A stretch of 64,000 bases of DNA from Oscillospiraceae bacterium (GTDB taxonomy: Bacteria; Bacillota; Clostridia; Oscillospirales; Ruminococcaceae), in contig JBMNHF010000004.1 of NCBI GenBank assembly GCA_050950205.1, positions 19,045 through 83,044 on the forward strand. The letters run 5' to 3'. The position numbers were made by a program, and so were the translations under genes. The notes under the pieces were generated by a model. That model worked only from the letters and a program-made list of their open reading frames with translations. It searched no databases and was not told the DNA's origin. Position 1 is the first letter of the stretch; each line of letters starts with the position of its first letter. This document shows, piece after piece, positions 56,360 to 63,445 of the stretch.

Positions 56360-57160
56360 CTAAGCGCGGTGGGCTTTGAATACCGTCCCCACCGAACTGC
56401 CTCCAAACAATTCGTAGAGAAGCTCGGGATTTTCGCCGTTGATGATGGCCATATCAATCCCGGCAGCCGTGGCAATCTCGGCGGCGTGGATTTTGGTGAC
56501 CATCCCCCCGGTGCCCCGATTGGACCCTACCCCCGATGCAAGGGACCGGATGGAATCGTCGATGGCTTCCACCACCGGAATGAGACGAGCGGAGGAGTCC
56601 TTGCGGGGGTCGGAGGTGTAAAGCCCGTCAATGTCCGAAAGGAGCACCAGAGCATCCGCATGCACCAACGTGGCTACCACAGCGGAAAGGGTGTCGTTGT
56701 CGCCAAAGTTTTCCCCTTCCAGCTCGTCGGTGGCCACCGAGTCGTTTTCGTTGACAATGGGAATCACTCCCATTTCAAACAACTGTTCAAAGGTGTTGAC
56801 AGCGTTGCGCCGCAAAATGGGGTTTTCGGTCACATCCCGGGTTAAAAGCATCTGGCCCACAATGTGATTGTATCGGGTAAAGCTCTGGTCGTAGAGGTAC
56901 ATCAGCTCGCATTGACCCACTGCGGCAGCAGCCTGACGCTCCGGCGTGGTGGAAGGGCGCTCTCTCAGCCGCAGCTTGCCCTTGCCAACTCCAATGGCCC
57001 CCGAGGTGACCAGCACAATTTCCTTACCGGAGTTTTTCAGGTCGGAAAGAACCTCCACCAACTGCTCCAGTCTGCGTATATTGATCAGCCCCGTATCATA
57101 AGTCAGGGTGGAGGTGCCCACCTTTACCACGATACGGCGGGCTTCCTGAAAGGTTTCCAT
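56360..57160 (-). CDS. proB: Glutamate 5-kinase (no PUA domain)
   Basis: VVKVGTSTL, VTSGAI, NENDSV, FGDNDTLSA, GTGGMVTK. Confidence 0.97.
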   Translation of the reverse strand: METFQEARRIVVKVGTSTLTYDTGLINIRRLEQLVEVLSDLKNSGKEIVLVTSGAIGVGKGKLRLRERPSTTPERQAAAAVGQCELMYLYDQSFTRYNHIVGQMLLTRDVTENPILRRNAVNTFEQLFEMGVIPIVNENDSVATDELEGENFGDNDTLSAVVATLVHADALVLLSDIDGLYTSDPRKDSSARLIPVVEAIDDSIRSLASGVGSNRGTGGMVTKIHAAEIATAAGIDMAIINGENPELLYELFGGSSVGTVFKAHRA

Positions 57161-57441
57161 TACCGCTCACTCCCATGCTCGGTCCGGTTGGTTCGGCCGA
57201 AAATTTTGCCTTTCTATTGTATCAGAAATCCCGGGGTTTCACAAGCAAAACCACCTTCTCCTTCTCCCATGACCCAAAAGCCATAACACCGGCAGAAAAA
57301 GCGCTTGCCTGCGGCCCTTTTTAGGGGATATCCTACATGAGCGTTTTTGTTTTGGTTATCATACCACAGTGGAGGACATCTTACCCCGGAAGATTAGAAA
57401 AAACTGTCAGCAAATCCCTAAAAAAATACTGGATTGATGGA

Positions 57442-57470
57442 TTGACTTTGCCAATACGGTGTGCTATACT
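57442..57470 (+). promoter_or_regulatory. sigmaA promoter about 470 nt upstream of speD
   Basis: TTGACT-17 bp-TATACT with TG extension. Confidence 0.75.
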
Positions 57471-57609
57471 ATCTTGACAGTATGGAAAACAGGGACAAAC
57501 AGCTTTCCATGCAAATATTTTTTTGACCACTTTCTTCTACCCAGGATCTTGAGAAGAAAGTCAAGGCCATGCGGACAGCCGGGTCAAATGCCGATTGGCA
57601 ATTGGTTGC

Positions 57610-57872
57610 CTTATTGATTGAGTTAAAAGCTCGAATTTTATAAGTTGGTTACTTATAACCAGTGTGCGCGGCACACCAAAACTTGTGAAACGGTCAATAA
57701 GAGTACTAAGAGTAAAAATGTTTGCTTGGATAGACTCTGAGATCCCGTGTCTGCATTTTGAATAAAAAAAAGCGGGTGCCTTTCTTTGCTCCGCTTTCGC
57801 AATAAAACAAAGTCAGGAAAACACAAGTAATGGTGCAGCGCCGCTGCATTATCCTTGTGTTTTTTTATTTTT
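57610..57872 (+). ncRNA. Structured speD leader (multi-stem junction plus intrinsic terminator), candidate riboswitch or attenuator
   Basis: Nested stems at 57610-57701; terminator AAAACACAAG/CTTGTGTTTT at 57818-57863 followed by a T-rich run. Confidence 0.55.
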
Positions 57873-57949
57873 CCGCGCTGCCCGCCCCCTACCTGTGGGT
57901 GCCGGCGAACCGGACTCTTATTTTTGCTGGAAAGGCAGGGTGGATGTTG

Positions 57950-58714
57950 ATGTCTGAGAAAACCAAACTTTACGGATTTAACAATCTGACCAAATCTCTA
58001 AGCTTTAATATCTACGATGTATGCTATGCCAAAACCGCCCGGGAGCAACTGGATTACATTGCTTATATTGACGAGCAGTACAATTCCGAGCGGTTGACCA
58101 ATATTCTTACCAATGTGACGGATATGATTGGAGCCAAGGTGCTCAACATTGCCCGGCAGGATTACGAGCCTCAGGGAGCCAGTGTCACCATTCTCATTGC
58201 CGAAGGGCCTTTGTTTCCCACTCCCCGCTCCGAAACCATTCTGGGCCATCTGGACAAAAGCCATGTCACCGTCCATACCTATCCCGAATACCATCCCGAA
58301 AACAGCATTGCCACCTTTCGGGTGGATATCGACGTGGCTACCTGTGGGGAAATTACTCCCCTTTCCACGCTGGATTATCTGATCGGCAGCTTTGATTCCG
58401 ACATCATCACCATGGATTACCGGGTGCGGGGCTTCACCAGGGATGTGGAGGGGCGCAAACTGTTTAACGACCACAAAATCACCTCCATTCAGAACTACAT
58501 CGACAAGGCCACGCTGCGCAAATACGATGCAGTGGATATCAATGTTTATCAGGCCAATCTCTTTCACACCAAGATGCTGATTAAGGAAATTGACCTGCAA
58601 AACTATCTGTTCAACGCCGATGTTTACGAGCTACCCCCCAAAGTGCGGCTGGAGATTCACGACAACCTGCGCCGGGAGATGATTGAAATTTTTTCGGGGC
58701 GGAATGTGTTCTAA
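57950..58714 (+). CDS. speD: S-adenosylmethionine decarboxylase proenzyme
   Basis: [31 protein letters not shown] self-cleavage site, DIDVATCG. Confidence 0.96.
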
Positions 58715-58759: not shown

Positions 58760-58788
58760 TTGACACTGCTCAAATTTAACGATATAAT
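58760..58788 (+). promoter_or_regulatory. Consensus sigmaA promoter of the met operon
   Basis: TTGACA-17 bp-TATAAT. Confidence 0.9.
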
Positions 58789-58897: not shown

Positions 58898-59010
58898 TTT
58901 TGTCGTGCCTTGGTGGGCTTTTGGAGCCCGCTGCCATAGGTGTTGATATATAATCGCAGAAAATCCGCAGGTGTCCGGGAGTATGTTTTTATGCTCCGGG
59001 CACTTTTTTT
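58872..59010 (+). promoter_or_regulatory. Transcription attenuator (mutually exclusive antiterminator and terminator) upstream of metF
   Basis: ACTCCCGGACAC(58872-83) is perfectly complementary to GTGTCCGGGAGT(58971-82), which can alternatively pair with ATGCTCCGGGCAC(58991-59003) followed by T7. Confidence 0.8.
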
Positions 59011-59045
59011 ATGAAACGGCCCACAATTTGATTGAGGTGACAGAT

Positions 59046-63167: not shown

Positions 63168-63335
63168 AGTTCGTAGGAAAATGACTGCGGTCTGCCGAAG
63201 GAGTAACACTCTCAGGCGCTCGAGGGTTCGGGCAAAGACTATGAATGGATGTGGCTCTGGAGAATCCCGTCAATCGGGTGCCGAAGGTGCAAGACGCGAT
63301 TAGCTCGCGTTAATCTCTCAGGCAAAAGGACAGAG
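63168..63335 (+). ncRNA. Tandem glycine riboswitch
   Basis: Two aptamers each with CCGAAGG...CTCTCAGG; CTCTGGAGA and CAGGCAAAAGGACAGAG in aptamer 2. Confidence 0.95.
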
Positions 63336-63445
63336 TTGGAAAAGGTATTGGGGCCTTTGGGCCCTTGTTCCTTTGTTTCTGGAGCCAAATCATGATTTGC
63401 ATGGTTTGGTTTTTTTATTTGTCGGAAGGAAGGGAATGTTGTTAC

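Follow-up and report, generated by a model that had tools for sequence, protein, structure and literature searches.

The ldcC motif in a clostridial speD leader is one arm of a conserved ~260-nt RNA, a candidate polyamine-responsive terminator switch

What kind of RNA precedes speD, the gene of S-adenosylmethionine (SAM) decarboxylase, in an Oscillospiraceae bacterium, and which signal might it read? We have analysed a 64,000-nucleotide (nt) stretch of contig JBMNHF010000004.1 from assembly GCA_050950205.1 (the window, in whose coordinates all positions are given), where a long structured leader lies upstream of speD. The original prediction for this locus, made from the letters alone, described a candidate new riboswitch or attenuator with a three-way junction and an intrinsic terminator. 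The leader belongs in fact to a published orphan RNA family, the ldcC motif, a candidate cis-regulator of polyamine genes, so the claim of novelty does not hold. On the other hand, the ldcC hairpin is a side arm of a conserved RNA of ~260 nt, which has at least 10 helices and closed ends. We are highly confident that the speD leader is a cis-acting, terminator-controlling RNA of the ldcC family. What its signal may be is a separate matter, and is weighed after the structural evidence.

The family assignment comes from a cmscan of the window against Rfam 15, in which RF02440 (SpF59_sRNA / ldcC RNA) matched over model positions 1-54 of 54, scoring 67 bits (gathering score 37.2; E = 7e-10 in a search of the whole window). 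The match is the single copy in this genome and forms the following arm.

57524-57594, + strand: ldcC arm, with P1 (TGACC 57524-28 / GGTCA 57582-86), P2 (57529-38 / 57552-61) and the conserved internal loop and tail AAGGCCATGCGGACAGCCGGGTCAAATGCCGA

The ldcC motif was published in 2017 (Weinberg et al., Nucleic Acids Res 45:10811, PMC5737381). It is presented there as a "hairpin with a bulge" that may also form a pseudoknot, as widespread among Firmicutes, and as probably acting in cis on the genes downstream of it, namely potA and those of arginine, ornithine and SAM decarboxylases. The arm found here agrees with this description in its full-length match, its conserved loop, its Firmicutes host and the suspected role in polyamine homeostasis. 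In the cmscan alignment P1 and P2 are paired and the loop is kept; the highly conserved nucleotides AAGGCCAUACGGACAGCCGGGUCAAAUGCCGA carry one substitution (AUGCGG for AUACGG), which is common to the same-genus relatives. As for genomic context, the family is expected in the 5' untranslated region (UTR) of a decarboxylase or polyamine-transport gene, and the arm lies in that of the SAM decarboxylase gene, 355 nt upstream of speD on the same strand.

The original prediction had counted a match to a known Rfam family against itself. The match takes in the ldcC arm; the junction and the terminator that were described lie outside the 54-position model of RF02440, and no other Rfam family matches there. 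For the region 57300-58000 the Rfam scan was made permissive (E<=10), and it returned only RF02440 and two plant-miRNA matches, which sit on the minus strand over the terminator palindrome and are due to chance. Within the same limits there is no match to SAM-I (RF00162) or a SAM-clan fold and none to the T-box (RF00230), for which there is also no tRNA-related gene context, in agreement with the earlier opinion that the leader is neither.

Directly 3' of the ldcC arm lies a junction built on two nested stems, P4 and P6. Its elements are as follows.

57597-57610, + strand: P3 hairpin, GGCAA-TTGG-TTGCC
57610-20 / 57691-701, + strand: outer stem, CTTATTGATTG / CGGTCAATAAG
57611-19 / 57692-700, + strand: P4, within the outer stem, as drawn by RNAalifold
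57611-57700, + strand: core junction, consisting of P4, P5, P6, P7 and P8
57620-32, + strand: P5 hairpin
57636-46 / 57680-90, + strand: P6, the inner stem, TTTTATAAGTT / AACTTGTGAAA
57647-60, + strand: P7 hairpin, GGTTA/TAACC
57662-76, + strand: P8 hairpin, GTGTGC/GCACAC
57701-57713, + strand: joining strand, GAGTACTAAGAGT in the window and GAGTAGTAAAAGT in most relatives

Is this junction a conserved part of the family? We have collected loci by an RF02440 search of 81 relatives and 401 genomes of the phylum, and by an exact-pattern scan of GTDB species genomes. The latter yielded 80 loci, including Paenibacillus, Priestia, Neobacillus, Brevibacillus, Blautia, Acidaminococcus, Oscillospiraceae, Ruminococcaceae and Butyricicoccus, and the RNA is thus present in Bacilli, Clostridia and Negativicutes. 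Three pattern hits in Actinobacteria are without any of the downstream ~150 nt and are regarded as chance matches. These ~150 nt 3' of the RF02440 match are kept in 15 of the 15 loci from the same order and in essentially all Firmicutes hits uncut by contig ends, the exceptions being contig-end loci and a few shortened or divergent variants such as L074. The conserved blocks follow each other in a fixed order: the covarying P3; UUAUUGAUUG; the covarying P5; UUUUAUAAGUU; GGUUACUUUAUAACC (P7); the variable, G+C-rich P8; ACUUGUGAAA-CGG-UCAAUAAG; and GAGUAGUAAAAGUA...UUGCUAUAUAGACUCU. The joining strand falls in near-invariant alignment columns and is unpaired in the end-closed model described below. 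As a side observation, it is the 3' third that is shortened or divergent in L074, L036 and L050.

A covariance model of 148 positions, R1, was built from the region 3' of the RF02440 match alone. It scores 137 bits on the window at 57594-57741 (E ~1e-22), with no second copy elsewhere in the genome, and is found in 22 of the 81 relatives, against 16 of 81 for RF02440. Two of the extra hits, L167 upstream of potA and L172 upstream of speD in the same genus, have no ldcC arm or carry a plain hairpin in its place. Since the R1 core occurs in leaders without the ldcC arm, the ldcC hairpin is common but dispensable, and the junction is the constant part.

The helices of the junction are well supported by comparison. 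RNAalifold on 37 diverse relatives predicts both nested stems together with P5 and P7. For the pair statistics, 100 loci were aligned to R1, giving 98 distinct rows and 32 pairs. Standard pairs occupy 97.6% of the cells against 92.7% after column shuffling, a value that 0 of 500 shuffles reach, and when the pair partners are slid by 1-3 columns only 26-46% of cells remain paired. Changes on both sides are seen in 15 of the 32 pairs (126 cells), and invariant pairs are taken as neutral, speaking neither for nor against the structure. P3 shows both-sided changes in 6 of 6 pairs with 94.3% of cells paired across the 98 distinct sequences; P5 is compensatory in 5 of 5 pairs (98.3% paired); and P7 has 2 compensatory pairs (98.6%). 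P4 (98.3% paired) and P6 (98.4%) are near invariant, and their variation is mostly one-sided, from U-G to U-A or C-G, but always compatible with pairing. For P3, a UGCC/GGCA alternative is preferred by the minimum free energy (MFE) fold, but covariation favours P3. For P8 the hairpin statistic comes from 14 loci only and is weak, and this arm is better supported by its covariation with the terminator, as shown later. Overall, the conservation and covariation that the original prediction had proposed to look for are seen in the ~100 Firmicutes loci, which show the conserved, covarying structure expected of a riboswitch class. In addition, P4 and P6 are rich in U-G pairs, whose equivalents on the minus strand would be A-C, and because of these many U-G pairs the RNA is assigned to the + strand.

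How far does the folded unit extend beyond the junction? Both flanks of the arm and junction take part in long-range pairing, for which the following strands are listed.

57489-57504, + strand: 5' strand of the end-closing helices, pairing with 57731-57751 in MFE folds
57507-57522, + strand: 5' strand of helix Pa, CCATGCAAATATTTTT (CCAUGCAAAUAUUUUU), pairing with 57714-57729
57714-57729, + strand: 3' strand of Pa, AAAAAUGUUUGCUUGG
From the end of Pa to 57753, + strand: 3' strand of the closing helices, ATAGACTCTGAGATCCCGTGTCTG

In the window, 15 of the 16 positions of Pa pair. Among 67 distinct loci the native Pa duplex has -10.2 kcal/mol, compared with -7.1 when the partner is taken from another locus and -6.1 after shuffling (p ~1e-11), and compensatory changes are evident, e.g. 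GAACUACU/AGUAGUUC in L018. For the outer closing helices, in which the 5' flank pairs with the sequence 3' of AGACUCU, the native duplex of the two flanks has -18.7 kcal/mol in 71 loci against -14.2 for other-locus partners (p = 5e-10), and it beats its own permuted mean in 60 of the 71. Pa and the end-closing pairings together therefore define a folded unit of ~57489-57753, i.e., ~260 nt. The three-way junction that had been predicted is thus real in its helices, but it is incomplete as a description, since with the upstream ldcC arm, P3 and the 5'-leader pairing the structure is a larger, closed multi-helix domain, and these parts had gone unmentioned.

A local hairpin within 57700-57738 (AGAGU/ACUCU with an inner stem, from RNAalifold) was considered as an alternative to Pa and set aside, because its 3' half pairs better, and covaries, with the 5' strand of Pa; its outer pairs may still form in an alternative conformer. 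It is also observed, at 57700-57738 and at the homologous positions in L006 and L040, that AGACUCU near the 3' end has as its partner either the internal AAGAGU or, in most relatives, a 5' GAGUCU, and that in L006 all three segments are altered jointly. This hints at alternative conformers around AGACUCU.

The leader was also considered as a whole. Its 404 nt fold with z = -5.57 relative to dinucleotide shuffles, and the unconstrained MFE structure contains both nested stems, the enclosed hairpins and the terminator. Taken together with the RNAalifold agreement and the 137-bit model score, this places the structure far beyond chance. An attenuator acting through a leader peptide would show a conserved short upstream open reading frame (uORF), and none is conserved in these leaders. 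The reading frames present have only TTG/GTG starts inside variable hairpins. An apparent peptide likeness between the window and locus L009 (KLVKRSIRV...) is nucleotide conservation, as the start codons are unconserved and indels break the frame. Because the spacing between conserved anchors differs by 1-2 nt among loci, no reading frame is conserved, and the conserved entity is therefore an RNA and not a uORF.

The next question is whether this domain has the means to control transcription. The regulatory elements downstream of it are these.

57754-57819, + strand: linker, A/U-rich, differing in length and sequence between loci and genera
57770-57796: linker hairpin AAGCGG...CCGCTT, conserved within the genus only (L007, L013)
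57820-57872, + strand: intrinsic terminator, with the stem AACACAAG...CTTGTGTT at 57820-57861 and a U-run at 57860-57872
57671-57687, + strand: antiterminator strand, made of the P8 3' arm and the P6 3' strand, GCACACCAAAACTTGTG
57822-57836, + strand: antiterminator partner within the 5' arm of the terminator, CACAAGTAATGGTGC

The terminator has a folding free energy (dG) of -20.7 kcal/mol. A strong hairpin with a U-run is found 20-250 nt 3' of the domain in most of 76 parsed loci, with dG <= -12 in 73. The complementarity between ACTTGTG (57681-87) and CACAAGT (57822-28), from which an OFF switch had been proposed, is the 7-nt centre of a longer antiterminator duplex, 57671-57687 / 57822-57836, with -17.0 kcal/mol in the window. 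In 70 loci the native duplex has -14.2 kcal/mol, other-locus combinations -11.9 (p = 1e-6) and shuffled ones -7.5 (p = 2e-12). The native duplex is better than the other-locus one because changes in the variable P8 arm are matched by changes in the terminator arm: in the potA clade GGCAUAC...ACUU pairs with AAGU...GUAUGCC, and in L008 GCUUGUG pairs with CGCAAGC. The OFF-switch layout, namely a terminator with a mutually exclusive antiterminator that uses a strand of the putative aptamer, is thus borne out computationally by covariation across ~70 loci. Apart from this, we note that an A8 run 5' of the linker hairpin makes a weak terminator-like site on the minus strand.

The locus in which the RNA is embedded has a simple arrangement.

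56360-57160, - strand: proB; proA lies on the same strand (the two genes identified by PF00696 and PF00171)
57442-57949: intergenic region between proB/proA and speD
57442-57470, + strand: sigma-70-type promoter, with -35 TTGACT (57442-57447), a 17-nt spacer and the TG-extended -10 TATACT (57465-57470)
57950-58714, + strand: speD, an E. coli-type SAM decarboxylase (TIGR03331 with 411 bits against a cut-off of 255.8; PF02675)

The promoter matches the consensus at 10 of 12 positions and has TG upstream of the -10 element, from which a transcription start at ~57477 is predicted. Between the terminator and the speD ATG (57950) a scan by consensus alone found no sigma-70-like site, which supports the earlier statement that no promoter follows the terminator. 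Actually, every element that the original prediction listed (promoter, nested stems, enclosed hairpins, terminator and the ACTTGTG/CACAAGT pair) is present where it had been placed.

Which genes stand under this RNA, and what do they have in common? In 76 loci the terminator is followed first by speD (25 loci), by the gene of a speA/ldcC-type pyridoxal phosphate (PLP) decarboxylase (21), by a carboxy(nor)spermidine-dehydrogenase-like gene (18, mostly Bacilli) or by potA (11). The downstream genes are those of both alternative routes of spermidine synthesis and of uptake, and the product that they share is spermidine. For such a set of genes the simplest logic is an OFF switch that responds to the end product they share, and the idea of a polyamine-related signal, which had been raised among others, fits these associations. 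In this genome the RNA is single-copy, with speD as the only gene under it. The genes of the speA-type decarboxylase and of SpeE (speE) stand together in an operon of their own on another contig (G000:C10:404563-406765; L175, L176), upstream of which no ldcC-family RNA is found even with filters off at E<=10; this operon has no long leader, as an open reading frame ends 19 nt before the decarboxylase gene.

Based on the above analyses, the following mechanism can be proposed. Transcription would begin at ~57477, and the nascent RNA would fold into the end-closed ~260-nt domain 57489-57753, with the P4/P6 junction as its core and the ldcC hairpin as a peripheral element. When the junction is shut, the P8 3' arm and the P6 3' strand would be sequestered, the terminator 57820-57872 could form, and transcription would stop before speD. 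When the junction is open, 57671-57687 would pair with 57822-57836 and polymerase would read through into speD. The end-product polyamine, most likely spermidine, would bind directly and keep the junction shut, i.e., the leader would be a feedback OFF riboswitch. The direction of the switch is inferred from the architecture and the gene logic; that the signal is a small molecule, and that this molecule is spermidine, are likewise inferences. On balance we lean, by a little, towards an OFF riboswitch thrown by direct binding of a spermidine-type polyamine. The wider proposal is held more tentatively, at somewhat short of an even chance: that the ~260-nt end-closed RNA, with its ldcC arm optional and its fold unrelated to the known SAM-I variant, might be the aptamer of a second, widespread class of natural polyamine (spermidine) riboswitch.

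Metatranscriptomes from anaerobic digesters and sludge, in which the leader sequence is present, give a view of its transcription. In run X1 a 262-nt contig corresponds to 57492-57753 with zero differences, and in runs X2, X3 and X5 contigs of 276-289 nt from close relatives start at 57492/57493 and end at 57746-57772; in X5 the Illumina adapter abuts 57493. Other runs hold pieces ending near 57805, and one piece in X8 reaches 57888, beyond the terminator. The speD coding sequence of this organism is not assembled in any of those runs. Transcription of the domain is shown by these runs, as is its much greater abundance or stability compared with the body of the mRNA, the ends of such assembler contigs being suggestive only. 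The excess of the domain over the mRNA body fits attenuation as well as the first detection of the family as a small RNA (sRNA). It is also seen that several of the contigs end at or just 5' of the linker hairpin 57770-57796 (at 57753-57772).

Several observations weigh against direct sensing of spermidine by this leader, or weaken the evidence given for it. Most metatranscriptome contigs stop at 57753-57806, before the terminator; the DNA-like run X14 also breaks its contig at 57492, and a contig of X13, another such run, spans 57538-58001. The contig ends may thus be assembly forks, at a border shared by co-occurring strains, or processing sites, and not termination products. In the thermodynamic MFE of the whole leader the aptamer and the terminator are both already formed, so that dependence on a ligand would have to be kinetic, or the default state would be OFF. 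The alignment behind the pair counts was fitted to the model structure, which favours that structure, and as P4 and P6 are near invariant, their support comes mostly from one-sided changes and not from full compensation. Polyamines bind RNA non-specifically, and hence gene context alone cannot tell a specific aptamer from a protein-mediated mechanism. Finally, full-text searches of the literature to late 2026 found no validation of a ligand or mechanism for the ldcC family.

The likeliest of the alternatives keeps this architecture and the OFF logic, but has a macromolecule as effector, such as an RNA-binding protein that responds to polyamines, or a ribosome or RNA polymerase influenced by them. 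The effector would bind the folded domain and make the junction more or less stable. The large size of the domain and its long invariant single strands (the ldcC internal loop and the GAGTAGTAAAAGT joiner) could provide protein sites, and the ldcC motif, published nine years ago, is still without a reported ligand. Nevertheless, no gene of a binding protein is conserved in the loci examined, where the contexts differ and only the RNA is common, and so wide a spread (Bacilli, Clostridia and Negativicutes), combined with a complex conserved junction, is what metabolite aptamers typically show, so we consider a macromolecular effector unlikely, though it deserves to be taken seriously.

Direct binding of spermidine has also to be compared with a riboswitch for another molecule of the pathway, such as putrescine, agmatine, decarboxylated SAM (dcSAM), methylthioadenosine (MTA) or SAM, or with a general cation signal. 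As the RNA controls speD only in this genome, a signal related to dcSAM or SAM is plausible locally. Across the family, however, carboxy(nor)spermidine-dehydrogenase-like genes and potA, neither of them related to SAM or dcSAM, follow the RNA as well; the common denominator of the regulated genes is the tri-amine product, and there is no likeness to a SAM aptamer in Rfam at E<=10. Such a signal is rather improbable in our judgement.

Very improbable is the reading of the folded domain as a stable sRNA in its own right, whether instead of or besides its role in cis, which would be released from the leader and act in trans: Rfam does type RF02440 as Gene; sRNA, after the Streptococcus sRNA SpF59, and the contigs of 262-289 nt, which hold the end-closed domain only and come from runs without the organism's speD, weakly echo the earlier suggestion of an independent RNA (of ~390 nt, longer than the contigs), but wherever the RNA occurs it stands before polyamine genes, on their strand, and is followed by a terminator that covaries with it, which is the signature of a cis-element; riboswitch leaders commonly leave stable aptamer fragments, and the contig ends may have arisen in assembly.

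Polyamines have long been expected as riboswitch ligands. Multi-way junction aptamers of at least ~200 nt, in which the 5' arm of the terminator competes for the 3' strand of an aptamer helix, are known from the lysine (L-box) and cobalamin riboswitches; the likeness of the present RNA to them is one of layout only, as the Rfam scan gave no sequence or model similarity.

The only validated natural polyamine riboswitch is a spermidine-binding variant of SAM-I (Salvail et al. 2023, Cell Rep, PMC10853860), of which the alignment in that paper holds 13 representatives. It resembles the speD leader in its genes, which overlap with those found here (speD, speE, speB and ldcC-type decarboxylases), and in the logic proposed for that leader, an OFF switch that acts by terminating transcription and has an antiterminator incompatible with the terminator. 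In contrast, its fold is unrelated, and the window is without RF00162 signal. The SAM-I variant is rare, whereas the RNA described here occurs in 22 of the 81 relatives and in over 100 GTDB species. Binding of the ligand has been demonstrated for the SAM-I variant; the present RNA is a candidate only.

The difference from the ldcC motif itself is one of extent. The hairpin with its bulge and possible pseudoknot, as given in the consulted part of the 2017 description, corresponds here to one arm of an end-closed domain of ~260 nt, beyond which there are at least nine further helices (two closing helices, Pa and P3-P8) and a covarying terminator/antiterminator. The core without the ldcC arm, as in L167 and L172, also departs from the motif as that part of the paper presents it. 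Thus the ~260-nt extent, the dispensability of the arm and the covarying antiterminator are absent from the Rfam model and, as far as the consulted part goes, from the 2017 description.

Two other observations concern the neighbourhood. Next to speD lies metF (methylenetetrahydrofolate reductase, MTHFR; PF02219; likely ATG at ~59046), which has a perfect TTGACA-17-TATAAT promoter at 58760-58788 and a leader of ~250 nt with a terminator-like hairpin and a U7 run at ~58974-59012. No Rfam family matches this leader at E<=1, and it could be a further unclassified regulator, an attenuator or a riboswitch, acting on one-carbon or methionine metabolism. Further downstream, a glycine riboswitch aptamer (RF00504) is found at 63247-63343 on the + strand with 64.9 bits.

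If earlier workers tried the 54-nt hairpin alone, they would have probed a side arm and not the sensor. The domain 57489-57753 together with the antiterminator is a concrete construct, with termination at ~57865 as the read-out and direct sensing of spermidine as the question, and the natural variants L167, L172, L074, L036 and L050 could serve as a ready-made deletion series. If the proposal is true, the Rfam entry now typed as an sRNA gene would be corrected, and one RNA would govern the speD/speE route, the carboxyspermidine dehydrogenase route and potABCD uptake across Bacilli, Clostridia and Negativicutes. This would explain how the synthesis and uptake of polyamines are coordinated in the Clostridia of gut and digester and in the Bacilli of soil.

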